This document shows, piece after piece, positions 8,530 to 24,809 of a stretch of 64,000 nucleotides of DNA. This stretch comes from Candidatus Levyibacteriota bacterium (lineage in GTDB: Bacteria > Patescibacteriota > Microgenomatia > Levybacterales > UBA12049), in assembly GCA_963790825.1 (NCBI GenBank), contig CAWBPM010000003.1, positions 253,681 through 317,680 of the forward strand, given 5' to 3'. Positions within the stretch are counted from its first letter, which is position 1, and each line of letters starts with the position of its first letter. Under the pieces are notes generated by a model. The model had not been told where the DNA came from. It searched no databases and saw nothing but the letters and a program-made list of their open reading frames with translations. Position numbers and translations under genes: made by a program.

Positions 8530-10293
8530 ATGGGTGCAGAACAAGCAAAACCGGAAGGTGAAGGAAAACCGGAATATCAAACCCCATTAACCTATGAAGT
8601 AAGAGATTTTCCCAGTATATGGAAGGCTGTTACGGAAGAAACAGGGAAGTATTTAAGGGTCGGTCCTGTTGTCGGTACAGTAGCAAATGCGCCAACTCTT
8701 TTTCTTGGAGATGGCAACGATTTATCTTTCGGACTTAATCTAAAACCATCATTTGCTGGTAATTTGGTTGAATCTACGTTAAGGGACAATGATAAAATAA
8801 GACATCTTTCAGAAACACTTCAAAAGTATCTCGGGGAGGAGTTGCGGGTTAAACCCCGTGAAAGAAAAGCTCAATATAATCTGCTCGGACTTGTTATTTC
8901 AAAAGTTACTACAACAAATGGAAAAGAGGAAGAAAGAGAAGTCGCAACATTTAATCAGGATAATCAGGAATTTAGATTTATAGAACATTTCGATGAGCCA
9001 GTAAATGAAGAACAAGGCAGAGACGCTCTGGAGCAAGCTTTAAAACTCTTCCAGATAACTACAAGCGAATTGTATCGGCTTAATGGTCTTGAAGTACCGG
9101 AAGAAAAAGTAATCATAGAACCGCCTGAGAGAGATAAAAAAATAAATGCAACAGATTTAAAAGAATTAATGAAATTTTTTAGAGAAGATAAGTTGAAAAA
9201 TCATGAGAAAATTTATTTCTCCCCAACAAGAGAAATTATTCCACTGCCTACACCCACACCTGACCATCCTGCTTCTACGGAGACTCCAAGGCCAGGCGAT
9301 AAGTTGGACGAAATAAGACAAAGTTATGCAAAAAATCAGTTTAATGAGATTAAGAAATTATTCGGTACGGGTGGAAGTAGTGATCTGGAAACACTTCGCC
9401 AATCAATAATCGTTGAAGGAGTTCCGGATATTACATTTGATAGCATTGGTGGACAGGCAGCAGCTGTGGAACAAGCACGCCTGCTTGCAGAACAACTAAA
9501 ACACCCTGAAGCTTTCGCAAGATGGGGATCTGAACCGCCCCGTGGAATTATTTTTATCGGTGATCCAGGGAACGGCAAAACATTGATAGCGAAAGCACTA
9601 GCACATGAAGCGGAAGTACCATTTATCATGGTCAAATCGTCTGACCTGGCATCGAAATGGTACGGCGATGCAGAAAAACTGGCAAAGGGTGTATTTCAAA
9701 TTGCCCGTGAAGAAGCTATGCAGCACGGAGGACACGCAATAATATATTTCGATGAGGTTGATTCGCTGATGCCTTCTCGAAAAGGAAACGTACATGAGGC
9801 AACTAGACGGGTCATCGGAACGGTTCTCCAGGAAATTGACGGACTACAAACACAAGAACAGGAAGGAAAACTGATAGTTATCGCCTCCACAAATACACCC
9901 GAAACTGTCGATGATGCTTTTCTGTCACGAATGACAGAATGGGTTGAAGTTCCAAGTCCTGATGCCCAGGGTATCTCTGAAATTCTGGCTATTCAATTTC
10001 AAGCGCAAACTGTAAAGGCTGGACGTGAGTTATTGCAAGAAGGAATTGATTTCAGCCAAGTTGCTTCGGAAATGGTCGGAGTCAGCGGTAGAGATATTGC
10101 CGATGTGGTGCAACGAGTATTATCTTTAAAAGGACAGCAGGAGGCACGTGGTCTAAGTCCCACTGTTGTTACCAAGGAAGATATCCAGAGCGCTATCGTC
10201 TCTTCTGCCAAAGTCCGTCAGGCGAAACTAAATCACAGAAAGGCAACAAGTGGACAAATTGGATTTAGGAATAACTCAGAAAAACCAAGCTAG
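8530..10293 (+). CDS. AAA+ ATPase (classical-clade single AAA module) with ~320-aa N-terminal domain of unknown function
   Basis: GIIFIGDPGNGKTLIAKALAHE (Walker A), IIYFDEVDSL (Walker B), STNTPETVDDAFLSRMTEWVEVPSPD (sensor/arginine-finger region). Confidence 0.75.
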   Translation: MGAEQAKPEGEGKPEYQTPLTYEVRDFPSIWKAVTEETGKYLRVGPVVGTVANAPTLFLGDGNDLSFGLNLKPSFAGNLVESTLRDNDKIRHLSETLQKYLGEELRVKPRERKAQYNLLGLVISKVTTTNGKEEEREVATFNQDNQEFRFIEHFDEPVNEEQGRDALEQALKLFQITTSELYRLNGLEVPEEKVIIEPPERDKKINATDLKELMKFFREDKLKNHEKIYFSPTREIIPLPTPTPDHPASTETPRPGDKLDEIRQSYAKNQFNEIKKLFGTGGSSDLETLRQSIIVEGVPDITFDSIGGQAAAVEQARLLAEQLKHPEAFARWGSEPPRGIIFIGDPGNGKTLIAKALAHEAEVPFIMVKSSDLASKWYGDAEKLAKGVFQIAREEAMQHGGHAIIYFDEVDSLMPSRKGNVHEATRRVIGTVLQEIDGLQTQEQEGKLIVIASTNTPETVDDAFLSRMTEWVEVPSPDAQGISEILAIQFQAQTVKAGRELLQEGIDFSQVASEMVGVSGRDIADVVQRVLSLKGQQEARGLSPTVVTKEDIQSAIVSSAKVRQAKLNHRKATSGQIGFRNNSEKPS

Positions 10294-10327
10294 ACACGAA
10301 AACAACTCACAGAATTCTTTAATCTCT

Positions 10328-12730
10328 TTACGATACTACTGTCTGTATATTGCCTGAGTCGTCGAGGGTCATTACGACATTATTTCCCCGCTTTATTTCG
10401 TCCCGCAATTCTTTTTGCGCGATAAGATCTTCTATTTTATCCTGTAAATAACGTCTCAAGGGACGGGCTCCAAACTCCGGATCATAACCTTCCTGAGAAA
10501 TTTTAGTAATAATTTTATCATCAAATGTAACTGCAATATCCTGCTCTTTCAGTTTTTCGGTTAAACTCTTAAGCATAAGACGGGCAATTGTCGCTACCTG
10601 ATCTTGGGATAATGATTTAAAAGTTACGACATCATCAAAACGGTTTAACAATTCCGGTTTAAAGATTCTGTTGCTTTGCAGATACTCCATCAGCCGGTGT
10701 TGAAATATTTTATCAATCTGAGTCCCTTTTTCGACTTCTTCCCGGATAAACTCAGCACCGGCATTAGAGGTAGCAATTATAATGGCATTAACAAATGAGA
10801 CTGTATGTCCCTTATTATCGGTAAGACGACCATCTTCAAGTACCTGAAGAAACAAATCTAAAATTCTGGGGTTTGCTTTTTCAAATTCATCCAGAAGAAC
10901 CAGGGAATCCGGATGGTCATGAATTTTATCGGTCAATTCGCCCCGTTCTTCTCCTTCACCGGGTGCCGCACCGAGAAGCCTTTTTACGCCTTCACTGTCC
11001 GAATATTCACTCATATCGAGGCGCACAATATGTTCCTGTCCGCCAAAATAGAGATCCGAGAGTACACGGGCTGTTTCGGTTTTACCAACTCCTGTCGGAC
11101 CTAAGAATAGAAATGAGACGGGTTTATTCGCACTTGCCAGCCCGGACCGAACACGGCGCATTGCCTCGGAGATTGCCGTGATGGCATCATCCTGACCAAT
11201 GATGCGCTCATGTAATTTTTCTTCAAGGTGGAGTAAGAGTTCTTTTTCCTGCGCCTTTGGAGCTGCGACATTCGCATGTGTTTTTTCTTCAAGAGTGCTT
11301 ATTACATCATCATCCGTTACAATATTCGACCTTTTCATTTTGTTCATAGTAACTGCAACTCGATTGGCCGAATCGGTAAGAAGCAGCACTGCGCTCCCGG
11401 GAAGATTCGCATCCTGTTCGTATCTGTCGGCAAAGTTAGCTGCCGCAATAACGCTTCGATATGTAAGGGAAACGCCATTTTTTTCTTCAATTTCCCCTGC
11501 TTTTTCAAAAAGCATCTGCAATGCTACGTCCTTTTCGGGCTCAAGAACTTGTATTATTTCGAATACTGATTTCATGGGGCTGCGCTCTAAATACGCTTTA
11601 TATGCACCGGGCGTCATTGTGGCAATAATCGGCATTCCTCCGTTTTTAAGGTAGGGAAGAAGTGCGCCTGAAAGATCCAGATTATACGATCCGGCTCCCA
11701 TGATGTTTTCAAACTGCGGAATATATAGAATAACGTTTCCGGCATGGGAAATTTCAGCAATAATATTTTGTAAGCGTACCTCCATATTTCCCCTATCTCC
11801 TGCTCCGGCAATAAGCGGTCCTACCATCAGCTCAAGTATTTTTTTATGATTTAAAGTGGAAGAAAGATAGTCGCCAAAACTGTCATACGCTAATGCTTCT
11901 ACCAGACTTTCTTTTCCCGCACCGATTTCGCCAACCAGAATAATATTATTATTTTCTTTTTTTGCCAGTGCCTCACAAATTTCCTGATATTCTCTGCTGC
12001 GTCCCACAATAAGAGCGCGTTTGTTTAGCGAATGGTAGGTAAAATCATCGGTGTATTGTTTGGTTTCAGGCGTCCAGCCGGACATTAACGATTCACCGAT
12101 TCCGTCGCCAAAAAAATGTACACGATAATCTTTTGCATGCTCTTCCTCCGGGTATTCCATTTGTGCCCAAAAGAGAATTTGCATCAGTTCTACGTCTTTT
12201 ATTTTTTTCCTAAAAAGCAATTTTGTTTTTTCTTCCGAAAGCAAAAGGTAGGAGACGAGACAGTCCATAGTCGTTATGTATTCCCCGTTTACACTTTTAG
12301 CAAGTTCGAAGCTATACTGAAGAATATCTTTTTTAGGAATATCAACAAGAGACAGTTCCCCTTTATCCAGACCGATTTTTTCCAGGATAAATAGTATTTG
12401 AGGATAGCGAAGAAGAGCCAGGAGAAATTTCTCAGATGTTGTTTCAGACAAATAAGCAGTCAAAACCGGCATTGTCGCAGAGCTGCCGACATCGGGTGAG
12501 TTGTTTTTCCCAACCGGAGTTTTCGGATGATACCTGTTAATTTTATAGCGGAAAAATGTTTCCGCCATGGCAAGAAGACATAGAAAAAAGATTGAAAATC
12601 TGGGGTATGAATGATTAGTAAGTCCATACAGAGTAAGTGAAGCAAAGAAAAATATTGCCAACAGCCTCACCGTTTTACCAATAGCCGAGTGGATTAACAA
12701 ATAAACATGAACGTACTCGTTAGAATTCAT
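10328..12730 (-). CDS. membrane-tethered Hsp100/Clp-family ATPase paralog; D1 module degenerate, D2 intact
   Basis: Two N-terminal hydrophobic helices; D1 Walker A is GEIGAGKES and Walker B position reads IPQFEN (no DE); D2 is canonical: FLGPTGVGKTETARVLS, LVLLDEFEKA, ATSNAG, GARPLRR. Confidence 0.75.
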   Translation of the reverse strand: MNSNEYVHVYLLIHSAIGKTVRLLAIFFFASLTLYGLTNHSYPRFSIFFLCLLAMAETFFRYKINRYHPKTPVGKNNSPDVGSSATMPVLTAYLSETTSEKFLLALLRYPQILFILEKIGLDKGELSLVDIPKKDILQYSFELAKSVNGEYITTMDCLVSYLLLSEEKTKLLFRKKIKDVELMQILFWAQMEYPEEEHAKDYRVHFFGDGIGESLMSGWTPETKQYTDDFTYHSLNKRALIVGRSREYQEICEALAKKENNNIILVGEIGAGKESLVEALAYDSFGDYLSSTLNHKKILELMVGPLIAGAGDRGNMEVRLQNIIAEISHAGNVILYIPQFENIMGAGSYNLDLSGALLPYLKNGGMPIIATMTPGAYKAYLERSPMKSVFEIIQVLEPEKDVALQMLFEKAGEIEEKNGVSLTYRSVIAAANFADRYEQDANLPGSAVLLLTDSANRVAVTMNKMKRSNIVTDDDVISTLEEKTHANVAAPKAQEKELLLHLEEKLHERIIGQDDAITAISEAMRRVRSGLASANKPVSFLFLGPTGVGKTETARVLSDLYFGGQEHIVRLDMSEYSDSEGVKRLLGAAPGEGEERGELTDKIHDHPDSLVLLDEFEKANPRILDLFLQVLEDGRLTDNKGHTVSFVNAIIIATSNAGAEFIREEVEKGTQIDKIFQHRLMEYLQSNRIFKPELLNRFDDVVTFKSLSQDQVATIARLMLKSLTEKLKEQDIAVTFDDKIITKISQEGYDPEFGARPLRRYLQDKIEDLIAQKELRDEIKRGNNVVMTLDDSGNIQTVVS

Positions 12731-12731
12731 A

Positions 12732-13124
12732 CTATTTAAATAATAGAAATATTGCCAATGCCGGCATTAATACAAACAAACTAATTACTAGAAATTCGCT
12801 AATCAACATTACTAAAAAAATAGTCAGTGTAAAGAGAATAAGTATTGTTTTTGCAAAAATTCCCATACCGATTGAGAAACCGACCAAACCTTTTCTATAT
12901 TCATTTTTTAGTGGCTTAAAAAAAGTGACAACCATCAGCTTTAGAGAGAATAGCTGGAGAAACGCACTGTTGAGCGACTGGAAATATGACAGCATCGTAA
13001 GCGGTGCTTCAATATACCAGAATTGTACGAGAATAAAAGGCAGGGTCGTATAATAGAAATTCATGAGCAGTATCTCTAGTCTAAAAACTTTTCCTCTAAA
13101 TTGCAAATGAGTATTATTTAGCAA
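12732..13124 (-). CDS. small polytopic membrane protein (3-4 TM), hypothetical
   Basis: 130-aa ORF almost entirely hydrophobic; 7-bp gap to upstream clpC-like gene and 1-bp gap to downstream Clp paralog. Confidence 0.4.
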   Translation of the reverse strand: MLNNTHLQFRGKVFRLEILLMNFYYTTLPFILVQFWYIEAPLTMLSYFQSLNSAFLQLFSLKLMVVTFFKPLKNEYRKGLVGFSIGMGIFAKTILILFTLTIFLVMLISEFLVISLFVLMPALAIFLLFK

Positions 13125-13131
13125 GCAAATA

Positions 13132-16041
13132 TTATTCCTGGGTTTCGTTTGGTAAACCGGCGGAAGAAGAAGTAAAGGTTGTGCCTGTTCCCGGAGGAGA
13201 CATTGGATAATTGGGAGTGGGCATGTTATTCATCGGATTTAGCATTCCCGACTCCTGTCCCATATCCTGACCAAACTGAGACATTGGCTGTGGAGTAACC
13301 CCATTTGGTATCTGAGGACTCCCATACGGAGGTAAAGGAGCTTGCGGGAACTCTTGGGACGGGCCGTATTGGTTATTTATTTCTGCGGGAGCGGAGTTCA
13401 TATACGGATTATTTACCGCCTGTGGATTTAGACCACTTGGGAACTGTTGATTAGGATTATACGGCTGATTAAAACCGGCCTGAGGAGGTAATACAGATGG
13501 AGAACCGGGCTGAGGTGGCTGAGTCATATTTGACGAGGGTGCGAATTGATTCTGCGAAGACATTGGTTCGCCCGCTTGCTGATTAGGTTCTGCTGCTTTT
13601 TCTTGACTACCAACCGCATCTGTATGGTTGGATTTAGTAAAGAAATATCCGCCCTTCGCCCCGTCAAAATCAATAAGTATCGCATCTCCGGGAAGAAACT
13701 TTTTTCCAATTATTTCAAGTGCAATTGGGTTTTCTATTCTCGTCTGAACCAGACGGCGAAGCGGTCTTGCACCGTACATAGGATCATACCCTTCATTTGC
13801 GAGTTCACGAAGAGCTGCATCTGTAATATCGACACTAAGTTGCTGCTCTGTAAGTAAACCGCTCGTTTTTTTAATGGCAAGTTTGGTAATACCTACCATA
13901 TCTTCTCTTCGTAAGGGCTTAAAAATAACGATGTCGTCAAAACGATTGAGAAGTTCCGGCCGGAAGAATTTATGCAGTTCCCCGCTTACCACTTCTGAAA
14001 GGTCCTTAAAATCTTTTGCGAGTTGTTCCGCTGTTTTCGGCGTAGGATTAGTTGTATCCTCCTCGCCTAATTTTTCAGTAATCAGGCTGCTGCCAATATT
14101 TGATGTACAGATGATAATCGTATTTTTAAATGAGATCGTATTGCCCTTGTTATCGGTCAGCCGGCCATCCTCTAAAATCTGCAGGAGAATGTTAAAGACA
14201 TCAGGATGCGCCTTTTCAACTTCGTCCAAAAGAACAATCGAGTACGGTTTTATTCTTACGGCTTCGGTTAATTGTCCACCTTCTTCATAGCCGACATACC
14301 CGGGGGGCGCACCAATCAGCTTGGCGACCTCATGCTTTTCCATGTATTCTGACATGTCGAGCCGAATCATTGCGCTTTCCTGACCGAAAAGAATCTCTGC
14401 TATAGTTTTGGCAAGTTCTGTTTTTCCCGTACCCGACGGACCTAAAAAGATGAATGACGCAATCGGCCTCTGTCCGCTTGCCAGTCCAATTCTCCCTCTC
14501 CTGACTGCCTCTGCCACTGCTTTTACTGCTTCCTCCTGATCGATAAGCCGCTCATGGATGCGATCTTCCAGTTTTAACAATTTTTGACTTTCATCCTCTG
14601 TCAATTTCGTGATCGGAATACCGGTCCAATTACTGACTACCTGTTCTATTTGCGATTTTTTTACCTCGTTTCCTGTTGTTTGCCCCTTTGCCTGCATCAT
14701 CTTCACATCTGCAGCAGCTTCGTCAATTAAATCAATTGCTTTATCGGGGAGAAAGCGTTCTCCAATATATTTTTTTGATAATTTAACCGCCTGAACCAAC
14801 GCGTCGTCGGGAATAGTTACCTTGTGAAAGTCTTCGTATTTCGACTTTAATACCTTAAGCATTTCGACTGCTACTTCTTCACTCGGCTCTTCACAAATTA
14901 TCGGCTGGAATCTTCTGGAAAATGCTTTATCTTTCTCAAAATATTTTCGGTATTCTGCTGTCGTCGTCGTACCGATTATCTGCAAGTGTCCTCTTGCCAA
15001 ATGCGGCTTAATAATATTTGATGCATCCATCGCGCCTCCCGTATCACCCGCTCCCATCACCGTGTGTATTTCGTCGATAAAAAGCAGTGTTTGTCCGCTG
15101 CTTGCCATGGCTTCACGAATAACAGAGCGCAACCGTTCCTCAAATTCTCCCCTGTGACTTGCGCCGGCTACCAAAGATGCTACGTCAAGCTGAATAATCC
15201 GCTTTCCCAATAGTTCCTTCGGCACTAATCCTTTCACAATATTTTGCGCCAGACCTTCAATAATTGCCGTTTTGCCAACTCCTGCTTCACCTATTATGAT
15301 CGGGTTATTTTTCGTTCTGCGGAGTAAGATATGAGCAAGTCTATCAATTTCCTTGTCCCGTCCGGCAATCGGATCAAGTTTACCCTCCCGAGCCTGTTGT
15401 GTCAGGTCTACCCCATATTCCTCAAGAACACTTTTTTTGGCCATTGTATAGGATTTATCTTTCGTTAATTTTTCTTCCACCTGCATTTTCCTAACACCTT
15501 GCTCTGCAAGTGAATTAACGCCGATACTCTGAGTTCCGGCAGAAAAAATTGCCAGCAGGACGTCCTCAGGAGCGATGAATCCGGCTCCGCGTTTTTTCGC
15601 TTCCAGATATGCACCTTCAAACACTTGTTTGGTATTTTGACTAAGCAGCGGTATACCGGGAAATCCGTCCGGAATTTCCCGACTTTGAATTTCCCGGGTA
15701 AGCTTCGCGACATCGACATTAAACTCTTCAAGAAGCTTATAGATTTCTTCATCAAAAAGTAATCCCAGAAGTATTTGGTCAACATCAATAAGCTGCTGGT
15801 GAATCCGCACCGATTCCTGCTGGGCGTGGGTTAGTACTTTTTGCGTACGGGAATCCAGATGCGACAGAGCGGACAAGTCTTCTCTTCGCGCCGGATCCAT
15901 GGCTGAATCAGCTATATTATTGTTATCAATAGGAGTCGCCTGCGGAGGCGGAGGTGTCCCCATATTTTGTGTATTTGTATTTTGTTGTGCTGGTGGGTTC
16001 TGATTTCCAGAACTCCTCTGATTGAATAAATTTCCAAGCAT
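13132..16041 (-). CDS. clpC: ClpC/ClpB-type Hsp100 chaperone with Q/N/P-rich N- and C-terminal extensions
   Basis: Clp N-domain repeats; D1 [15 protein letters not shown] / LLFIDEIHT; D2 [17 protein letters not shown] / [29 protein letters not shown] / GARPLRR; short D1-D2 linker (ClpC-like). About 160 aa Q/N/P-rich low-complexity C-tail. Confidence 0.85.
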
Positions 16042-16098
16042 ACTATTTCCTTATTTTATTCTGTATGGTTTTTACTGATTAGTCAAGCTCTCCAATTA

Positions 16099-19000
16099 TT
16101 ATTTTTTTGTTTCAGGCTCGTCTTCCGCTGACATCTCAAGAGAAGGCTTTGTTATTTTTTGTATAGTTATTAGTTCTTCTGTTTCATATCCTTCTTTCTT
16201 CAGGTTTTCCAGCACGTCTTTGGCTGCTTGTTCTTTTGCTTTCAAATACGCAATAATCTCATTTTGCGAGAATCCGCCAAGCAGCAGGAAAGGCAGGATA
16301 TTTGAAACTGCTTCCATGCCTGCTTTTACTTTTTCAGGTGCTGAGGCTGTCAATAACAGGATTATTTGCTCAATATTTTCGATTTCTTTTACCAACCAGG
16401 TTATTCTGTTTTGTATTACTCCGCCTGGTGCCTCAGGTATATCCATTTTGCTATAGTTTTCCTGCCATAGTTTTTTCACTGTTTCATAATCAGCGACATT
16501 TATTTGTTGCAGTTTATTAACAGAGGGGAAAGACCCTGCAATGTAGCTAAGCAAATACTTCTTTTCTTCTTCCACTTGTAGCCAAACTTCTTCCGCCAAC
16601 TGGTTCTTTTTTTCTTTTTCTGAAAATATTTGATTTTTTATTTTCAGCAAGGCATCTTTTCCTAATTTTTCCGGAAATTCGACTAAAATTGCCTGAGCAA
16701 GCAGATTGCCATTTTCTTTTTCAGCCTGCAGTCTGTTTTTGAGAGATATATATTTCTCTTTTCTTAAAGGATCACTTATTTCCTCAAGATACGTAATATG
16801 CATCAGAACTGTCTTAAGTGCTGAAAGCAGTAGTTCTTCGTCATCAGCGGTTCTTCCGGAAACCGTATGGGCTGCTGTTAAGAGAGAAGTCGCGAGCGGA
16901 TCGAAGGACTTACTTGCCTCAAGGAGTTGCTGTTTTAGATTGCCATACTTACTGCGAAGTTCGGACGAGGTCAAATTATCCGGACGCGATATTCGCTCTA
17001 ATACCTCCCGTACTTTGGCTATGTCTTCTTCTTTCCCGGATACTTGAGCAGGTTGGGATTCGTACCGGACAATATCTCGAAGCGTAGGAAGCGGTAGGTT
17101 GGTAAGCTCCAGCAGTTTTGTATTTACTTGAGGATATGTTAATGCTTTAAGGTTTGTGCCAACCGGAATAGAAGCACGCGCTATTTCTTGATCCGGACTT
17201 TCTATTTCCGAAGCGGTTGTCATATGCCCTACTTCAGAGGTGGTCGCTGTTTTTTCTTTTGCTTCGATTAATGTTTCTTCCTCGTTTGCGTTCTGTTCTA
17301 GATCTTCCAAAACCGTCTTTCCTGCCTGTTCTTTTGCCTTCAAATACGCGACAATTTCTGACTGGGAGAAGCCACCCATCAGAAGGAACGGCAGGACGTT
17401 TGCTACTTCCTGCATGCCGGCTGCTACCTTCTGCTGGTCGGTCGAAGAAAGTAGATCAATGGCTCTAGTTACTTTCTCCAAATCTGATTTTACCCAAGTT
17501 TTCCGATCCATTTGTCCTGTTTCTGCAGTTTGTGGAATAGACATATTCTTGTAGTTATCAGTCCACATAGACTTTACTGCTTCGTAGTCTTCAAGGCTTA
17601 CCTGCTGGATACGATTACTAGTTGGGAGATTGACAGAGGAGGAAGTTACCTGCTTTCCGGTTGTTTGTACGCCGCTTTGCGACATCAGAGAAAGAATATT
17701 TCCTGCCAGTTGGTCTCCTTTTGCCTGTGCATCCATGAGTTTCTGTTTCACTTTTTGTAGATCTGTTTTCTCGGTTTTACTGTTGACACCCAAGAGAGAC
17801 GTGGCAAGTTGATTGCCTTTCTTGCTTTCTTCTTCAAGTTTGGCTTTTATCCTGACATATTGCTGTCTATCTGCAACTGCAGGGATTGAGGATAGGGCAG
17901 AATTTACGATTTGAGAGAGAACTTGAGATATGACTTGTGTCTCTTTGGATACAGTTTGCTTATCTACCTCAGAAAGCAACGTAGTTGCCAACTCATTTCC
18001 TTTCGTACTTTCCTGCATTAACTGGTCTTTCAGTTTTTGTATATCTGAGGCATTCGTTGTTTTCTCAGTTGCAGAGAGAATAGTTGTTGCAAGCGTATTT
18101 CCCTGCCTGCTCTCTTTGAGAAGGGTTTCTTTCAGTATGTTTATCCGCTCCCGATCGGTTGTAGAGGTTACTACTTCTTGTGGATTAGCAATTTGCGTCA
18201 GTACGTTTTGCAAAGATGAGACGCTTGGCTGGGATAGGATATTTTGGCTAGTTGTTGCAGACTGCAGTGCAGTGAGTATTGATGTTGCCAGGACGTCTCC
18301 TGTCTGGCTTTGTTTAGTGAGTTCACTTCGCATCTTGGTATACTGGTCACGCTCCTGCGCATTACTCAATGCCTCGGGATTTTGCAGATTTCGCATTGCT
18401 TCTTGTAATTTGACTAACTCTGTGGACTTTTCTCGGGAGGAAGAATTCATCGATGTTTCAAATTTCGCAATATCCCGAAGTGTCGGAAGCGACAAGTTGG
18501 TAAGTGTCAGTATTTTCGTATCAACTAGAACAGGAGTCGAAGCTGTGGTTATGGTAGGCGTTTGGTACGCCTCTTCCTCGTCCGCTGTTCTTGAAATTGT
18601 CAAATGCTGAGGGACTGTGGTTGTTTCACGTTTTACCTCAACAGTTGTATCCTCTTCCTCATTCGTTGAGGAAATTAACTCTTCCAGTACTACTTTTCCT
18701 GCTTGTTCTTTTGCTTTAAGATAGGCAACAATCTCCGACTGGGAGAAGCCACCCATCATCAGGAACGGGAGAATATTTGATACTTCCCGCATACCCGCTG
18801 CTACCTTCTGCTGCTCGGTTGAGGAGAGGAGATCAATCGTTCGGGAAATATTCTCTAGGTCATTCTTAATCCAGGTTTTTCGATCTGTTTGTCCAGTCTC
18901 GATACTTTGTGGTACATCCATGTTTTTATAATTCTCGGTCCACATGGATTTAACTGCTTCATAATCCTCAAGATTTACTTGCTGTACCCGATTCGCAGTG

Positions 19001-22000
19001 GGCAGTGGAGTCGTAAGAGTACCGGCTTGTGTCTGTGTTTGGTATTGCTGTTGAAGCATAAGGCCTAGGATTTGGGCAGCATTCTTATCCCCTTTATCGC
19101 GGGCGTCCATGAGTCTTTGCTTTAACTTCTGCACATCGCTGGTTTGAGTTTTAGAATCAGTAGTTAAAGCTTGTCTATTAATTTCTGATAAGACAGAGGT
19201 CGCTAACCCATTTCCTTGTTTACTCTCTTTTGTTAATGTGTCTTTCAATTGTTGTATTCCTGCTGCACTTGTCGTTTCTTTAGTGGCTGAAAGAATTGAT
19301 GTAGCAAGTGTATTGCCTTGTTGACTTTCTTTTACCAAGGTTTCTTTTAGTGTTGATATTCGCTCGCGATCAACAGTTGAGGTAGTGACAGAGGCAGGAT
19401 TCGCAAGATGCTCCATTACTTGAGACATTACTTGCATATCTCTCGATGCGCTTTGTTTATCTACCTCAGACAGAAGAGATGTAGCAAGTGTATTGCCTTG
19501 TTTACTCTCTTTCACCAATTGATCTCGTACCTTCTCCATCTCTGAAGTACTGGTCGTCCTCTCCGTCGCTGAAAGAATTGATGTAGCAAGTGTATTGCCT
19601 TGTTTACTCTCTCTGACTAATGTCTCTTTCAAAGCCGTAATTCGCTGCCGATCGGTCGTTGAAGTTGTGATAGACTGGGGATTGGCTAATTGTTCAAGGA
19701 CGCTTGACATAACTTGCGTATCTTTGGATATACTTTGTCTATCCATCTCGGAGAGTAAGGTTGTGGCAAGCGTATTCCCTTTTTCGCTTTCTTTGATTAA
19801 TTGTTCTTTGACTTTTTGAATTTCAGTATTGTTAAGTGTTTTTTCTGACGAGGAGAGTAAAGTGGTTGCCAATGTATTATTTTTCTCTTTACTTTCCGAT
19901 ACTAATTTTTCTTTAAGAGTCGTTATCCTTTCCCGTTCCGTTCTCTCTGTTATTTTTTCAGGGGAGGCAAGCTCTGTAAGAAGCTGTGACAACTCTGTAT
20001 TTTGGACTTGCGTCGTGCTTGTAGCAGTTGAGAGAATAGTCGTTGCAAGCGTATTTCCTTTTTGGCTTTCTGATACTAATTCACCTCTGAGATTACTGTA
20101 TACTTCTTGATCTTTTGCAGTTTGGACTGCGGCAGGATTGGCAATTTGCCCAAGGACCTGTGAGAAGGCTTTCGTATCTGTTGAGACAGATTGCCTGTCC
20201 ATTTCAGACAGTATTGTTGTTGCAAGCGTATTGCTCTGTCTACTTTCTTTAACCAACTGGTCTCTTACTTTATCCATTTCAGATGTATTTGTTGTTTTCT
20301 CAGCTGCAGAGAGAATAGTTGTTGCAAGCGTATTTCCTTTTTCGCTTTCTTTGAGAAGCGTTTCTTTAAGCGCTGTAATCCGCTCCCGATCGGTTGTAGA
20401 CACAACTGCTGGATTGGCAATTTGCCCAAGGATCCGGGATAACTGCTGTGACTCCCGAGCCGACGTGTTATTTGAGGCAGTAAATGTATTATTTGCAGCA
20501 TTAAGAATAGTCGTCGCCAATACATTTCCCTTTTCACTTTCTTTGACTAAGTGTTCCCGAATTTCTTTATAATGCTCACGATCTCTCGTATTTGTCAGAA
20601 TTTCGGGATGGGCAATCTGCTCCAGAGACTGCTGCATAGTAGAAACTTCTTGTTGTTTCTCTTTGTTGGTCGATAATATGCTTGTTTCAAAACGTGCAAT
20701 ATCCTGCATTTTTGGCACACTCAGATTTGTTAAGCCTAACAGAACTATATCTGCTGGCAGTGGCTTTGCCAGTCCGGCAGTCGATGATTTTGTAATGTTA
20801 TTTTCTGTATTTATTGCTTCATTGGAACTGGCAGGTATTGCTTTTGCTAATCCCGCTCCCCGACCGGGCAAATTGAATTTCGGCGTAAAAGGCAACACGC
20901 GTCCCAGACCAAATGACGGAGCAGGACCGGGAGGAGCCGCCGGATTGACGGGAACAGGCGGGGCACCACCCAGGAAGGCACTACTTCTATTTCGGATATT
21001 TTTAATGACTGAATTTTCAGCATAGTTATAATTGGTCGCATAATCCAGGAAAATTTGTAAGAGAATCCATGGTACAATAATCACCATCCAGAGCATTAAA
21101 AGAGCAACTAAATATAAGGCAAATGTTTCGGGTAAATTAAGACTATTATTACAGGGCGTGGTAGCTGTATTATTGTAACAGACAGTTTGTCCCGGGCCAC
21201 CAAGAAGAATATTAATGGCAGTCGGAAAAATGTCATTAGTTGGATCCCAAATGTTTCCTGCAAGCGGCTTTAGTGGTTGGTCTAATGTGGCATAATTGCT
21301 GTAATCATGAGGAATAAAGTTTAGAGGTACACCAGCTCGCCATACTTGAACCAACCCTGCCAGGAAAATAGCAAAAAGCGGAGCATAGAGAGCCCAGCGG
21401 AAAAATTCGCCTATCCAGATTTTGGCTGTATTTCGCACAGGATAATATAGTAAAAGCAGAGGGAAAATAGGAGAAACAATAATAAAAAACCATAGAATAA
21501 TTCTGCGGATTATCAGAATAATCACCATCACGTAGTAAGTAAGTGCGGTTAATTTTACAAACAGTAATGAAACAAATGCGGATTCATTGTTCATGTCTCC
21601 CGTTAAGCGAAGTCCGATAAACTGTGTGTAATCCCATCCGACGTAAAGCAAATTTCCCTGCCATATTTCAGGATGCGCGATGTTCGTAGCGGTATCGGGG
21701 TTTTTGAGAAAAAATCCCTGGATAATATCGGTTATCTGGTAAATAAATTGAATGAGCGCATAAGAAAAAGTCACCAAAAGTATGACAGCGATAAAACGCG
21801 GAATAAAACGACGAACTCCTATACTTCTTCCCCGGGTAGAAATAATAATAAAAGCTGTAATTAAGACAAAGAGAACAAAAAACGCATAGACAATGTTACG
21901 AATTGTTACCCAGAAAGGAAGCAATGGATCGGTTCCGCTGGTGACGGAATTCAATTGTTCCCAGTCATAGTTCTGAAGCGACCAGTCAAGAAGAAGTCCG

Positions 22001-22542
22001 GACCTGGCAGCATTTTTTCCATCAAAAGTTACTTCCGAATCGGGGATAAAGATATTATCGGGAACAACATCTGTAGCGGCAGTGGCAACCGGTGCAGGAG
22101 CTACTGCGGCAGCTACGGTAAATAATAATCCACTTACTACATTTCCATTTCCGCCCGCATCACAGGGACTTACTGCAGGATTTGGGGTTAGCGCACATGC
22201 AGCTCCTACTGGAGAACCAACTGTAACTGAATAGGAGCAACTTGCAGATGCTACGCCTGCAATTGTCGTACAAGTATAACCAGCCGGCGGCGTGTAATTG
22301 ACAGCATACGTACCGGCATTAAGATTTGTTATTGTAAAACTAGCCTGTATAGCAGTGCCGGATTGAATTGGAGCAGGACCTGGAGGTAAAGTAGTAATAT
22401 TCCAGGTTCCTCCGACATTGGCTGCAGAGAAGTTTACCTGGATAGAACAATTATTCGTACAAAGAGCAGCAAATACGGAATGCGGAGAGAAATAAAGAAA
22501 AAATGCCAAGAAAAAGAAAAAAACGGACAGAAATTTTTTCAT
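16099..22542 (-). CDS. giant (2147 aa) secreted/polytopic membrane protein: signal peptide + Cys-containing ectodomain + ~6 TM helices (VirB6/TrbL-like topology) + ~1500-aa repetitive hydrophilic tail
   Basis: MKKFLSVFFFFLAFFLYFSPHSVFA signal. TM block VYAFFVLFVLITAFIIIS ... IILWFFIIVSPIFPLLLLYY ... LYLVALLMLWMVIIVPWILL. Tail has three ~350-450-aa super-repeats, each ending in ...DYE(A/T)VK..W..NY..M.IP......R.TW...........LL..........AGM.EV.N.LPFL..GGFSQ.EI.AYLKAKEQA.K, plus many ~50-90-aa GNTLAT(T/S)ILS units. Confidence 0.7.
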   Translation of the reverse strand: MKKFLSVFFFFLAFFLYFSPHSVFAALCTNNCSIQVNFSAANVGGTWNITTLPPGPAPIQSGTAIQASFTITNLNAGTYAVNYTPPAGYTCTTIAGVASASCSYSVTVGSPVGAACALTPNPAVSPCDAGGNGNVVSGLLFTVAAAVAPAPVATAATDVVPDNIFIPDSEVTFDGKNAARSGLLLDWSLQNYDWEQLNSVTSGTDPLLPFWVTIRNIVYAFFVLFVLITAFIIISTRGRSIGVRRFIPRFIAVILLVTFSYALIQFIYQITDIIQGFFLKNPDTATNIAHPEIWQGNLLYVGWDYTQFIGLRLTGDMNNESAFVSLLFVKLTALTYYVMVIILIIRRIILWFFIIVSPIFPLLLLYYPVRNTAKIWIGEFFRWALYAPLFAIFLAGLVQVWRAGVPLNFIPHDYSNYATLDQPLKPLAGNIWDPTNDIFPTAINILLGGPGQTVCYNNTATTPCNNSLNLPETFALYLVALLMLWMVIIVPWILLQIFLDYATNYNYAENSVIKNIRNRSSAFLGGAPPVPVNPAAPPGPAPSFGLGRVLPFTPKFNLPGRGAGLAKAIPASSNEAINTENNITKSSTAGLAKPLPADIVLLGLTNLSVPKMQDIARFETSILSTNKEKQQEVSTMQQSLEQIAHPEILTNTRDREHYKEIREHLVKESEKGNVLATTILNAANNTFTASNNTSARESQQLSRILGQIANPAVVSTTDRERITALKETLLKESEKGNTLATTILSAAEKTTNTSEMDKVRDQLVKESRQSNTLATTILSEMDRQSVSTDTKAFSQVLGQIANPAAVQTAKDQEVYSNLRGELVSESQKGNTLATTILSTATSTTQVQNTELSQLLTELASPEKITERTERERITTLKEKLVSESKEKNNTLATTLLSSSEKTLNNTEIQKVKEQLIKESEKGNTLATTLLSEMDRQSISKDTQVMSSVLEQLANPQSITTSTTDRQRITALKETLVRESKQGNTLATSILSATERTTSTSEMEKVRDQLVKESKQGNTLATSLLSEVDKQSASRDMQVMSQVMEHLANPASVTTSTVDRERISTLKETLVKESQQGNTLATSILSATKETTSAAGIQQLKDTLTKESKQGNGLATSVLSEINRQALTTDSKTQTSDVQKLKQRLMDARDKGDKNAAQILGLMLQQQYQTQTQAGTLTTPLPTANRVQQVNLEDYEAVKSMWTENYKNMDVPQSIETGQTDRKTWIKNDLENISRTIDLLSSTEQQKVAAGMREVSNILPFLMMGGFSQSEIVAYLKAKEQAGKVVLEELISSTNEEEDTTVEVKRETTTVPQHLTISRTADEEEAYQTPTITTASTPVLVDTKILTLTNLSLPTLRDIAKFETSMNSSSREKSTELVKLQEAMRNLQNPEALSNAQERDQYTKMRSELTKQSQTGDVLATSILTALQSATTSQNILSQPSVSSLQNVLTQIANPQEVVTSTTDRERINILKETLLKESRQGNTLATTILSATEKTTNASDIQKLKDQLMQESTKGNELATTLLSEVDKQTVSKETQVISQVLSQIVNSALSSIPAVADRQQYVRIKAKLEEESKKGNQLATSLLGVNSKTEKTDLQKVKQKLMDAQAKGDQLAGNILSLMSQSGVQTTGKQVTSSSVNLPTSNRIQQVSLEDYEAVKSMWTDNYKNMSIPQTAETGQMDRKTWVKSDLEKVTRAIDLLSSTDQQKVAAGMQEVANVLPFLLMGGFSQSEIVAYLKAKEQAGKTVLEDLEQNANEEETLIEAKEKTATTSEVGHMTTASEIESPDQEIARASIPVGTNLKALTYPQVNTKLLELTNLPLPTLRDIVRYESQPAQVSGKEEDIAKVREVLERISRPDNLTSSELRSKYGNLKQQLLEASKSFDPLATSLLTAAHTVSGRTADDEELLLSALKTVLMHITYLEEISDPLRKEKYISLKNRLQAEKENGNLLAQAILVEFPEKLGKDALLKIKNQIFSEKEKKNQLAEEVWLQVEEEKKYLLSYIAGSFPSVNKLQQINVADYETVKKLWQENYSKMDIPEAPGGVIQNRITWLVKEIENIEQIILLLTASAPEKVKAGMEAVSNILPFLLLGGFSQNEIIAYLKAKEQAAKDVLENLKKEGYETEELITIQKITKPSLEMSAEDEPETKK
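16240..20600 (-). repeat. intragenic tandem repeat region (protein-coding): three ~1.1-1.4-kb super-repeats plus ~150-280-bp sub-repeats
   Basis: DNA-level near-repeats: GGFSQ-module coding sequence at ~16245-16300, ~17330-17400, ~18705-18775; gcaagcgtatt(c/g)cc(t/c)t... units at ~18100, 19300, 19480, 19585, 19760, 20040, 20220, 20320. Confidence 0.7.
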
Positions 22543-22556
22543 AAGTTTTGCGTATA

Positions 22557-22856
22557 TTACGCACTAAATCCGGGAACATGTAAAATATCAACCAGTACAA
22601 CTTGTACGAAAACGTAACCTAAAATTGCAAATAATATGCCGATTACCGCGTATTTAATGTAGCTTTTCCCTTTATCCAAGGCTTCATGATCTCCTTGAGA
22701 ACTTAGAACAATGTATCCGCCATAAATTAAAAATAAGATTGCCAGACCGCCGATCATACTTAAGCCTATACCGTAAAATTTCTCTACCAGCTGAACCGGG
22801 TCTGTCGGTAAACAACCAAGATCGGTACTAACCGTATTAGGAGCACAAGTATCCAT
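22557..22856 (-). CDS. VirB2/TrbC-like (pilin-like) two-TM hairpin mini-protein, hypothetical
   Basis: 99 aa; ~25-aa hydrophilic N-terminus with 2 Cys, TM1 GIGLSMIGGLAILFLIYGGYIVL, short charged loop, TM2 YAVIGILFAILGYVFVQVVLV; 14 bp upstream of the giant gene. Confidence 0.45.
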   Translation of the reverse strand: MDTCAPNTVSTDLGCLPTDPVQLVEKFYGIGLSMIGGLAILFLIYGGYIVLSSQGDHEALDKGKSYIKYAVIGILFAILGYVFVQVVLVDILHVPGFSA

Positions 22857-22955: not shown

Positions 22956-24740
22956 TTAGTTAAATTTATACTTTTTGCCGTCTATATTCATAATAAAAGA
23001 TTGATTGGCAAGTATATGAGAATAAACAAAAACTATCTCCTGATTAGTCGGATCCAGTTGATAGGCTTTTTTTATTGCATCCAGAGCAGCTTGTTTGTCA
23101 TGCAGTTTAAGTTTAGTAAGTGCCAGAAGTTTCCACAGATCGGAAGAATCCGGTGAATCCGGATAATCCTTTACCGCTTCTTCCAAAAAGTCATTCGCTT
23201 TATTTGGGTCATCGTAATAAACCAAAATCGGTGCGTAATTACGATAAGTTAACAAATAATGCTTATGTTGTAAAACCAGCTGGTACTGCTTTGCATGAAG
23301 CGCCAATTCATAATACTTCTCTGCTTTTTGGAAATCTCCCATTCTCCCATATGTAGCTCCCATATTTTGCAAATTCAGCTCGTTTGGTCTTTGGGAAATA
23401 GATATAGTAAGATGTTTTAGCGCATCACTATATTTATTTATATTTAAATACTCAACTCCGAGGTCATTCTCAATATCAAAATTATCACTAATTAAAATAT
23501 CATAGTTATAAAGAGTAAAAACATCATGCCAATCATTATTTCTGATTATTGTTCTCACTGATAATGAGAGGACAATAATAATTGCAATAAAAACAATGAC
23601 TGACGCATTCATCTTTAGCTTATGAATAATTATCTGGCAAATGATCCCGAATATTCCCAGCAGTCCTACCAGCGGAAAGTAAAACCAGCGGTCTGCAACA
23701 GTCATATCGAGAGGGAAAATCTGAGCTATCATTAAAAATCCCAGGACGAGCCAGGCGGAGAAAAAAAAGAAAGGCTTGGAGAATTGTTTATGATGCTTTG
23801 CGGTATATATACCTACTAAAGTAATAAAAGCAATAAATGACAGATCTATGATGAGCGGGAGATAAAGGGTTGAAAAATGCAGAGAGGTTATTACCCATTG
23901 CTGATCAGTGGCAAGCGTTTTAGGAAAAAAGGACGTTTTGAGATAGTAAAACATGATCATTGGCATATTAAGCAAACGTTCAAACAAAGAGAGACTGGCT
24001 ATGGGAGTTACCGGTCGCGCTGATATATCCACTTGTCCAATAAAAATACGGATAAAAGCGTAGAGACTAATGGTAATAAAACTGCCAATTGAGAGTTTAC
24101 TTAGGTTATTTTTCAAAAAAAGAAAACTATAAATCAGAATCATGCAAACAAAAAGTATCCCTGTTTCTTTTGTGAGTAACGAAAGAAGTGCTAAAGAAAA
24201 AATAATTACAAGTTTTTTACCAGACAGGTTTTCGTTCATAGAAAGCAAGAGTGACAATGCTCCAAAGAGAAAGAAAAGAGGGTTGATCGTCTGTGCAATG
24301 TAAGATACCGCTTCGATGTTGATTGGATGAACCAGAAATACAATTGATAAAAAAAGGGTAATTCCCTTAGAAAAATACTTTTGAAAAAAAATAAAGATAA
24401 TAATTGTACAGATAATATGTAATACCAACTGAAGAAAATGGTAGATAAAAGGTGCATTAGCAAAAGCTGTACAGAGAATAGAGAAGTATAATTCGGGTAT
24501 TGGTCGATATTGTCCGCCGTTATTAAATAGATTATTCCCAAAAGCATAGAACAGATTTATATGATACGTATATAAATTTCTGATTATATACGTATAATCG
24601 TCCCAGACAAATCCGTTGAAAAGCATATTGAAGTAGACGATAAATCCGACGATTGCAATAATATGGATCGCTTTCTTTGTGGTTAGAGGAATAAAGAAAC
24701 GCTTTAGAGAAAACTCCTGTTGGTTGGGCGTATCCTGCAT
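22956..24740 (-). CDS. TMTC-like GT-C family glycosyltransferase (DUF1736-type polytopic N-domain) with C-terminal TPR repeats
   Basis: N-terminal FNMLFNGFVWDD motif and ~10 TM helices; C-terminal TPR-like repeats (ALKHLTISISQRPNELNLQNMGATYGRMGDFQKAEKYYELAL...). Confidence 0.6.
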   Translation of the reverse strand: MQDTPNQQEFSLKRFFIPLTTKKAIHIIAIVGFIVYFNMLFNGFVWDDYTYIIRNLYTYHINLFYAFGNNLFNNGGQYRPIPELYFSILCTAFANAPFIYHFLQLVLHIICTIIIFIFFQKYFSKGITLFLSIVFLVHPINIEAVSYIAQTINPLFFLFGALSLLLSMNENLSGKKLVIIFSLALLSLLTKETGILFVCMILIYSFLFLKNNLSKLSIGSFITISLYAFIRIFIGQVDISARPVTPIASLSLFERLLNMPMIMFYYLKTSFFPKTLATDQQWVITSLHFSTLYLPLIIDLSFIAFITLVGIYTAKHHKQFSKPFFFFSAWLVLGFLMIAQIFPLDMTVADRWFYFPLVGLLGIFGIICQIIIHKLKMNASVIVFIAIIIVLSLSVRTIIRNNDWHDVFTLYNYDILISDNFDIENDLGVEYLNINKYSDALKHLTISISQRPNELNLQNMGATYGRMGDFQKAEKYYELALHAKQYQLVLQHKHYLLTYRNYAPILVYYDDPNKANDFLEEAVKDYPDSPDSSDLWKLLALTKLKLHDKQAALDAIKKAYQLDPTNQEIVFVYSHILANQSFIMNIDGKKYKFN

Positions 24741-24809
24741 GTCATTATGCTAACATTAAAGATAAAGTTATTTCAATTACAATTTGCTTCTTAGAACCAG
24801 CCTCTTTTT

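Follow-up and report, generated by a model that had tools for sequence, protein, structure and literature searches.

The 64,000-nt window analysed here (positions 253,681 to 317,680, forward strand, of contig CAWBPM010000003.1 in the Candidatus Levyibacteriota assembly GCA_963790825.1) carries a complete minus-strand gene at positions 10328..12730 for an 800-aa paralog of the Clp/Hsp100 ATPases, starting with ATG and characterised by open reading frame (ORF) calling, Pfam, phmmer, AlphaFold2 (AF2) and Foldseek. Directly upstream lies a small minus-strand ORF (12732..13064) for a 110-aa polytopic membrane protein that matches no known family, the partner protein below, whose stop codon ends 1 nt before the ATG of the paralog. 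Two genes upstream of the paralog, a canonical two-ring Clp ATPase of 969 aa is encoded on the same strand (13132..16041; Pfam Clp_N, AAA and AAA_2). A first-pass annotation had described the paralog as a membrane-tethered Clp/Hsp100 protein with an inactivated first ring (D1) and an intact second ring (D2), and had proposed that it acts as a membrane-proximal unfoldase or adaptor paired with the canonical ClpC two genes upstream. The Clp/Hsp100 assignment was confirmed by Pfam, BLASTP, phmmer and AF2/Foldseek, and the position of the canonical gene by the ORF map and Pfam. Beyond these points, we found that the paralog has lost the pore-loop aromatics of both rings and the arginine fingers of D1, that the M-domain and the IGF loop are missing, and that a small membrane protein is co-encoded.

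The C-terminal half of the paralog matches Pfam AAA_2 (1.5e-44) and ClpB_D2-small (7e-23), and Pfam P-loop matches at residues ~240–285 are all sub-threshold. The nearest NCBIfam models, TIGR03346 (ClpB, 448 bits against a cut-off of 1232) and TIGR02639 (ClpA, 403 against 993), score far under their cut-offs, which places the protein outside both the ClpB and the ClpA equivalog. By BLASTP it is 37% identical to the canonical neighbour over residues 224–790; its closest solved relative is Bacillus subtilis ClpC (9e-117, phmmer against PDB), and its identity to class-I Clp proteins amounts to 33–37% over ~570 residues. The best Foldseek matches of an AF2 model built on an 81-sequence alignment (predicted local distance difference test score, pLDDT, 86.7; predicted template modelling score, pTM, 0.76) were ClpC, ClpC1 and ClpB subunits (template modelling score TMt ~0.8). 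With its tandem AAA+ modules and an AAA_2-type D2 followed by ClpB_D2-small, the protein has the architecture of the class-I, two-ring Hsp100s, and judged by its sequence the product of 10328..12730 is a class-I Clp/Hsp100 paralog of a Patescibacteria clade. A search of 5.8 billion proteins yielded at least 120 full-length relatives (~800 aa, 47–59% identity), the close family hereafter, which derive from Levybacteria/Patescibacteria metagenome-assembled genomes (MAGs) and carry only generic Clp names. Matches to anti-phage defence ATPases in PADLOC (DolB, PDC-M37B) were limited to D2 and equally strong for the canonical neighbour; we regard them as generic D2 similarity and rejected this candidate function.

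Motifs were assigned by aligning the paralog, residue by residue, with its canonical neighbour and with B. subtilis ClpC; all positions given for the paralog refer to the minus strand. D1 (11336..12010) aligns to ClpC D1 at 1e-33 and falls under the Pfam AAA cut-offs. Its Walker A motif, GEIGAGKES (11906..11932), keeps the lysine and has glutamate in place of threonine when set against GE(A/P)GVGKTA of the two references; among 120 relatives, the residue after GK is Glu in 88, Thr/Ser in 19 and Asp in 7. In Walker B (ILYIPQFEN, 11705..11731, versus ILFIDE(I/L)H) Asp has become Pro and Glu has become Gln, with Pro at the Asp position in 108/120 relatives and Asp in 1/120. Both arginines are lost from the arginine-finger site (PMKSVFEII, 11552..11578; canonical ..RRFQ.I, RR to SV), and the tyrosine is lost from the pore-1 loop (AGAGDRGNME, 11780..11809; canonical AGxKYRGEFE, KYR to GDR). 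Catalytic residues are thus not present in both rings: D1 reads GKE, PQ and SV for RR, and D2 is canonical. The inactivation of D1, first suggested by the loss of the Walker A Thr/Ser and the Walker B Asp–Glu pair, holds at residue level, the motifs remaining lost after alignment to ClpC and to the neighbour. Mean D1 identity to the target within the family is nevertheless 55%, so the dead ring remains constrained, as a structural pseudo-ATPase would be and a decaying gene would not.

D2 forms a complete AAA+ module together with D2-small (10361..11215; Pfam AAA_2 and ClpB_D2-small), and its large subdomain is the most conserved part of the protein, with 72% mean identity across the family. 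The Walker A motif GPTGVGKTE (11075..11101) is identical in 113/120 relatives and the Walker B motif LLDEFEKA (10874..10897) in 116/120; the sensor-1 TSN is present; N696, R697 and D699 of the arginine finger (PELLNRFDD, 10631..10657) are invariant, as are G754, A755, R756 and P757 of sensor-2 (FGARPLRR, 10451..10474). The D2 motifs listed as retained at first pass are therefore not only present but near-invariant in 120 homologs. Two elements characteristic of ClpC are missing. The M-domain, a coiled-coil insertion in D1-small that serves as the contact for MecA/McsB, is absent from the paralog, in which 64 residues separate LPGSAV from HERIIGQ, compared with ~120 in B. subtilis ClpC, and ClpC residues ~410–467 have no counterpart; without an M-domain there is no site for MecA/DnaK coupling. 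No (I/L/V)-G-(F/L) loop for ClpP docking was found either, the corresponding region reading EEVEKGTQIDKIF and being shortened family-wide.

The pore-1 loop of D2, GAAPGEGEERGELT (10931..10972), departs from the canonical GYVG by deletion of the Tyr-Val tip, which leaves PGEGEE and a net acidic loop. This two-residue deletion extends throughout the family (PG[EQ]-G.ER), with a mean net charge of −2.1 over 120 relatives. Aromatic pore-1 residues (KYR in D1, GYVG in D2) are accordingly lacking in the paralog and its relatives alike: none of 120 has an aromatic in the D1 loop, and two of 120 have one in the D2 loop, a Phe close to the C-terminal end of the loop and off the tip. Threading by Hsp100 proteins depends on aromatic pore-1 loops, as stated in a Torsin review (PMC5425593). 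The proposed unfoldase activity was consequently not borne out, since the D1 aromatic is missing in 120/120 relatives, the D2 GYVG is replaced, and the Saccharimonadales branch described below shares the D2 loss and has a shorter D1 loop.

At the N-terminus, two hydrophobic helices precede the Clp-like part: helix 1 (12617..12685, residues 16–38) has a core at residues 23–37, LLAIFFFASLTLYGL, with a mean Kyte–Doolittle hydropathy (KD) of 2.15 and the conserved Arg22 at its flank, and helix 2 (12539..12601, residues 44–64) has a core at residues 45–60, FSIFFLCLLAMAETFF, with a mean KD of 2.06. AF2 places helices at residues 16–38 and 44–64 with pLDDT >90, and the loop between them is 8 residues long in 86/96 members. 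Most relatives have an N-terminal KD19 (KD over 19-residue windows) of 2.0–2.8. Lys and Arg are unevenly distributed, their combined counts being 3.1 for the N-flank, 0.9 for the loop and 3.2 for the C-flank, consistent with an N-in/C-in hairpin that leaves the ATPase body on the cytoplasmic side. Taking hydropathy, conservation, charge bias and the AF2 helices together, the pair of transmembrane helices recognised at first pass very probably does constitute a membrane anchor. In the family alignment, Glu57, near the cytoplasmic end of helix 2, and F59 are invariant. This acidic residue is interfacial, and not every distant member keeps it; for these reasons we do not claim an intramembrane salt bridge between Glu57 and the conserved Lys/Arg of the partner protein.

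Residues 81–195 (12146..12490) are modelled as eight helices with pLDDT 89–97. The paralog has no Pfam match to Clp_N, and hhalign alignments of its N-region to canonical Clp_N domains are weak (probability 8–48%), in a register that pairs the family-invariant YITTMD with YIGTEH of canonical Clps. When residues 1–235 were modelled separately with AF2 (pLDDT 86.2), the result was an eight-helix bundle whose best 50 PDB matches were all N-domains of Clp, ClpC1, ClpA, ClpB or Hsp104, or ClpC2, these matches being themselves weak (E 0.03–0.45; TMt 0.34–0.53 for isolated-domain entries). The Clp_N-like segment of the first-pass annotation can thus be upheld for the fold, by the model and its PDB matches, and not for the sequence, and we read the region as a strongly diverged Clp_N fold, recognisable at fold level only. 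Across 1.84 billion cluster representatives, the N-terminal 235 aa match only 83, and always as the N-terminus of ~780–830-aa proteins or in fragments. Between the N-domain and D1, a linker (12011..12145, residues 196–240, pLDDT 40–61) contains a family-specific flexible loop, F.G.GIGE.L..GWTPET+.Y, in which G218, W219, T220 and T223 are invariant, and which, to go by its sequence, could be a partner- or membrane-contact element. As a separate observation, this linker loop is conserved more strongly than the N-domain.

The partner protein is highly hydrophobic in its C-terminal half (KD19 up to 2.9) and has no match in Pfam, NCBIfam or PADLOC; its 194 homologs, from Levybacteria and Patescibacteria, are all ~109 aa long and all labelled 'hypothetical'. 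The partner ORF stands directly upstream of the paralog in all sampled close-family loci (L002, as an uncalled ORF, L004, L087, L088 and L089), and it keeps this position in L088 although the other neighbours there differ. Distant loci with upstream sequence (L006, L007, L008, L010, L012, L016, L035 and L048) have a membrane ORF of 114–135 aa with the same architecture in the same place. A hidden Markov model (HMM) built from the Levybacteria small proteins and searched against 3,354 background ORFs matched those of L012 and L048 (2e-5), L007 (0.003) and L010 (0.02), and marginally that of L008 (0.12), with one unrelated ORF at E <1. In L080 the partner is fused in-frame to the paralog and takes the place of its own hairpin, which points to membrane attachment itself as the selected property; an independent fusion of partner and paralog occurs in P0111/L086. 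The invariant companion of the paralog is therefore the ~110-aa membrane protein and not the canonical Clp. We also considered read-through or recoding as a link between the partner ORF and the paralog, and rejected it, as the two are in different frames with TAG and 1 nt between them. A promoter and terminator scan of 10100–16300 gave no excess over shuffled sequence (15 vs 12.5 and 6 vs 6.4), so no operon claim is made from it. The fused gene of L080 (2257 onward) begins 18 nt downstream of an FtsH gene (245–2239), leaving two membrane AAA+ proteins side by side.

We then considered how widely this combination of features occurs. Contigs of species-representative genomes were searched with the family alignment; the matches listed were mostly canonical Clps (~70, serving as controls) and included no close relatives (>47% identity), together with at least ten distant ones (L006–L010, L012, L016, L035, L048 and L080) from Saccharimonadia and other Patescibacteria-type MAGs. 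The resulting survey comprised 95 Clp-like ORFs over all loci, with L048 examined separately. All nine distant relatives in the survey lack the D2 GYVG, and the eight with a recognisable D1 all have a hydrophobic N-terminus (KD19 1.75–2.8). D1 is degenerate in seven of these eight, each decayed differently, and L010 keeps GKT and DE. The ~75 canonical Clps, by comparison, carry FIDE, GYVGY and either KYR or a closely related aromatic motif, and their N-terminal KD19 is mostly <1.5, with a maximum of 1.65 apart from one at 1.97. Hydrophobic N-terminus, GYVG loss and D1 decay thus co-occur in the 95-ORF survey, and are missing from the ~75 canonical Clps.

A second deep branch, from Saccharimonadales, comprises at least 120 clusters of ~785–830 aa (e.g. 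L010, P0324–P0443) and is 32% identical to the target over residues 16–791. Like the target, its members have two N-terminal hydrophobic helices (KD19 ≥1.6 in 120/120 listed members) and a small membrane ORF directly upstream; their D1 arginine fingers are lost, the pore loops of both rings are shortened, and D2 is intact. Unlike the target, they retain the D1 Walker A (GKTT) and Walker B (LDD/LDE) motifs, which indicates that D1 inactivation in the window is a later, lineage-specific step. A neighbour-joining tree of D2 groups all anchored, pore-less proteins together (bootstrap 58/100) and separates them from canonical Clps encoded in the same genomes. On the question raised at first pass, membership of a clade of Patescibacteria (the candidate phyla radiation, CPR) is supported. 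The likely order of events, read from these sequences, is that the anchor was gained and the pore loops and the arginine fingers of D1 disappeared, after which D1 nucleotide chemistry was lost in the lineage of the window and in some others. Two distant members have a CxxCxGxG...CxxC zinc ribbon of DnaJ type ahead of the hydrophobic helices (L006:547–700 and L009:134–300), with below-cut-off matches to Pfam DnaJ_CXXCXGXG (E 0.019 and 0.0014, respectively).

With ClpC, ClpA and ClpB, the paralog shares the order of N-domain, D1, D2 and D2-small and a fully canonical D2 ATPase site. It differs from them in its membrane hairpin, an N-domain recognisable by fold only, a dead D1 and a dedicated small membrane partner, and it has neither an M-domain nor an IGF/VGF ClpP loop nor, in D1 or D2, an aromatic pore-1 residue. 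It is hence unmistakably Hsp100-derived, yet lacks the functional features that define ClpC, ClpA and ClpB, and adds an anchor and a new partner family. Functional parallels may be found among the Torsins, which, according to the review cited above (PMC5425593), are AAA+ proteins related to Clp/Hsp100; they associate with membranes through a hydrophobic element at the N-terminus, lack aromatic pore loops, work through membrane-embedded cofactors, and are regarded as unlikely to be processive unfoldases. Membrane association, lack of aromatic pore loops and membrane cofactors are the suggested points of likeness. However, a Torsin has a single AAA+ module, lacks its own arginine finger (supplied by LAP1/LULL1) and resides in the lumen of the endoplasmic reticulum, whereas the paralog has two rings, an invariant D2 arginine finger (NRFD), a presumably cytoplasmic body and a small polytopic partner without an AAA+ fold. 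The Pfam Torsin match of the paralog (E = 0.01) is below cut-off and does not make it a Torsin; we treat the resemblance as a functional analogy, with shared ancestry proposed at the Clp/Hsp100 level only. FtsH and Msp1/ATAD1 resemble the paralog in having an N-terminal transmembrane anchor that puts the AAA+ entry face against the membrane, but these are single-ring translocases of the classical clade with aromatic pore loops, FtsH having a protease domain in addition, whereas the paralog belongs to the two-ring Hsp100s and has neither pore aromatics nor a protease partner.

The combination of an anchor, a dedicated partner, a dead D1, a live D2 and the lack of pore aromatics, M-domain and ClpP loop best supports a non-threading ring powered by D2. 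The reading that we prefer, and to which we give about an even chance, is that the paralog is a D2-driven, membrane-bound AAA+ remodeller or switch that does not thread its substrates and works with the small membrane partner by a Torsin-like logic. On this model, the helix pair would form an N-in/C-in hairpin holding the N-domain/D1 face of a presumed hexameric ring at the cytoplasmic surface of the membrane, where the paralog would enter a complex with the small membrane protein. D1 would act as a structural or assembly ring, and ATP binding and hydrolysis in D2 would power a conformational or assembly cycle whose target would be the membrane partner or clients that the N-domain binds, with no polypeptide threaded through the pore and none fed to ClpP.

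Several observations weigh against this reading. The bootstrap for a single clade is only moderate (58/100), and other pore residues might still translocate despite the loss of the aromatics. The upstream ORFs of L006 and L016 gave E ~1 in the direct HMM test, so that their likeness to the partner is one of motif and architecture only, and the fusion in P0111, which comes from a single 3.5-kb contig and whose hydrophobic segments are odd in number, could be an assembly or frameshift artefact. As to the anchor, its cores are short (15–16 residues), the 19-residue windows of the target are marginal (1.65 and 1.34), and a monotopic or re-entrant hairpin is equally possible. These same figures, together with the conserved Glu within helix 2 and a loop of only ~8 residues between the helices, favour an account in which the N-terminus does not span the membrane and is instead a monotopic or re-entrant association element (cf. 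the N-terminal hydrophobic domain of Torsins) or a buried helical pair that binds the partner. Such an account is difficult to reconcile with the higher KD19 of most relatives (2.0–2.8, and ≥1.6 in all 120 listed Saccharimonadales members), with charges that follow the positive-inside rule, and with the exchange of the hairpin for a polytopic partner fusion in L080, and we give it a slim chance. The many catalytic and pore residues lost might suggest that the gene arose by duplication of the neighbouring Clp gene and is now decaying and without function, but this is highly improbable given an intact 800-aa frame, more than 240 cluster representatives of conserved length in two deep branches, near-invariant D2 motifs, a D1 with 55% mean identity, and family-specific invariant residues alongside a dedicated, co-conserved partner gene.

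Two further alternatives assign the paralog a role in handling polypeptides. It could be an extractor of membrane proteins in the manner of Msp1/ATAD1 or FtsH, its acidic pore loops pulling on basic segments of membrane or secreted proteins and its partner serving as receptor or conduit. The N-terminal anchor, which by domain order would turn the D1 entry face to the membrane as in FtsH and Msp1, is compatible with this, as are the full set of intact D2 ATPase motifs including the arginine finger and a D2 loop whose conserved and consistently acidic character (mean charge −2.1) suggests a retained job; the DnaJ-type ribbon of L006 and L009, below cut-off, hints at binding of non-native protein. 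To our knowledge, however, the pore-1 tip of all AAA+ translocases carries a residue that is aromatic or else large and hydrophobic, and both branches of this family have lost the tip in D2 and have a polar residue or glycine there in D1; moreover, the family-wide loss of the D1 arginine fingers leaves no possibility of a sequential two-ring cycle. We therefore regard extraction as rather unlikely.

The other alternative, that the paralog is a membrane-proximal unfoldase, or an adaptor or mixed-ring mate of the canonical Clp, possibly serving the VirB6-like and pilin genes nearby, draws on gene order: DnaK, DnaJ, a type IV secretion system (T4SS) pilin-like gene (T4SS_pilin), a large VirB6-like gene and the canonical Clp are followed, in some loci after other genes, by the small ORF and the paralog and then, further on, by NusA and IF-2, in the window and in L002, L004, L087 and L089. 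In addition, the two Clps are 37% identical and both without an M-domain, which makes mixed rings conceivable. Yet the aromatics missing from both pore loops make threading unlikely, and such subunits would weaken the staircase of a mixed ring. Nor does the pairing with the canonical ClpC, as proposed at first pass, hold for the family as a whole. In L004, L087 and L089, unrelated genes for peptidases or a cohesin-like protein stand between the canonical Clp and the paralog module; the 10-kb flanks of L088 contain neither the canonical Clp nor the VirB6-like block; and the flanks of ten distant loci contain no detectable VirB6-like or pilin gene, and a canonical Clp only in L016, ~5 kb off and on the opposite strand, so that adjacency is not kept outside the Levybacteria lineage. 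With NusA–IF-2 downstream equally syntenic, these findings suggest inherited gene order within one lineage rather than functional coupling, and we judge this second alternative unlikely. A 2025 survey of Patescibacteria T4SS genes makes no mention of Clp or AAA+ neighbours.

Going beyond the non-threading, D2-powered remodeller itself, we tentatively put forward the paralog and its ~110-aa partner as a two-component membrane machine of Patescibacteria, an anchored non-threading Hsp100 with a dedicated membrane protein, forming a bacterial counterpart of the Torsin–cofactor system in which D2 hydrolysis would remodel or gate something in the membrane. Candidate roles are, for example, envelope assembly, uptake of lipid or protein at the host interface, or membrane-protein quality control, and such a machine may belong to the core functions of these reduced genomes. 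Textbooks describe Hsp100/Clp ATPases as soluble machines that thread their substrates; if the proposal is right, this large clade, anchored in the membrane, without threading loops in either ring and with one whole motor lost in one of its branches, would clearly exemplify the re-use of an unfoldase scaffold for a task other than threading, its D2 ATPase kept pristine and a membrane partner dedicated to it. It would also offer AAA+ research a prokaryotic, likely biochemically tractable system with Torsin-like features, and would give CPR biology a conserved, unannotated membrane module in organisms for which little is understood of the envelope and of the dependence on a host. We found no description of the family in the literature, including term look-ups in the Patescibacteria T4SS survey, a TM7x transcriptome paper and the Torsin review. 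Database names of the relatives are generic or wrong ('ClpC', 'ClpA', 'AAA family ATPase'), and the label 'ATP-dependent Clp protease ATP-binding subunit ClpC' is misleading and inflates the proteolytic capacity inferred for these genomes.

Further observations concern the neighbouring genes. The canonical Clp has AGASHRG as its D1 pore loop (Tyr to His), as do 5/5 canonical Clps sampled from Patescibacteria; only 65 aa lie between LPDKAI and HERLIDQ, leaving no M-domain, KLGEED occupies the expected site of the ClpP IGF loop, and the C-terminus is a ~170-aa low-complexity tail rich in Q, P and N. Upstream, the T4SS_pilin ORF of 99 aa (22557–22856, minus strand; 27.1 bits against a cut-off of 26.6) directly precedes a 2147-aa protein (within 16099–22856, minus strand) with long internal repeats (...GNTLATTILS...) and a weak TrbL/VirB6 match (19.9 bits, below cut-off). 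This pilin/VirB6-like/Clp block follows DnaK–DnaJ in four related genomes. VirB6 is reported as scarce in Microgenomatia in the published Patescibacteria T4SS survey, and this divergent VirB6-like family may thus have been missed. In the window, the stretch between DnaJ and the pilin gene (22956–26602, minus strand) encodes two tetratricopeptide repeat (TPR) proteins, of 594 and 389 aa, and a PMT_2-like fragment of 180 aa; since the pilin gene follows DnaJ directly in related genomes, this stretch looks like a lineage-specific insertion.

Convergent with the paralog, a plus-strand gene (8530–10293) encodes a 587-aa protein with one classical AAA domain (Pfam AAA, 3.6e-32), nearest to PAN, CDC48, CdvC and FtsH, all far below cut-off; its N-terminal ~290 aa have no family match, and its position is not conserved across related loci. 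Finally, five members of the wider family (L006, L009, L016, L080 and P0340) have the Patescibacteria-type gene pair on contigs labelled 'uncultured Gammaproteobacteria' or 'Nevskiaceae', which are probably mis-binned or mislabelled MAG contigs.

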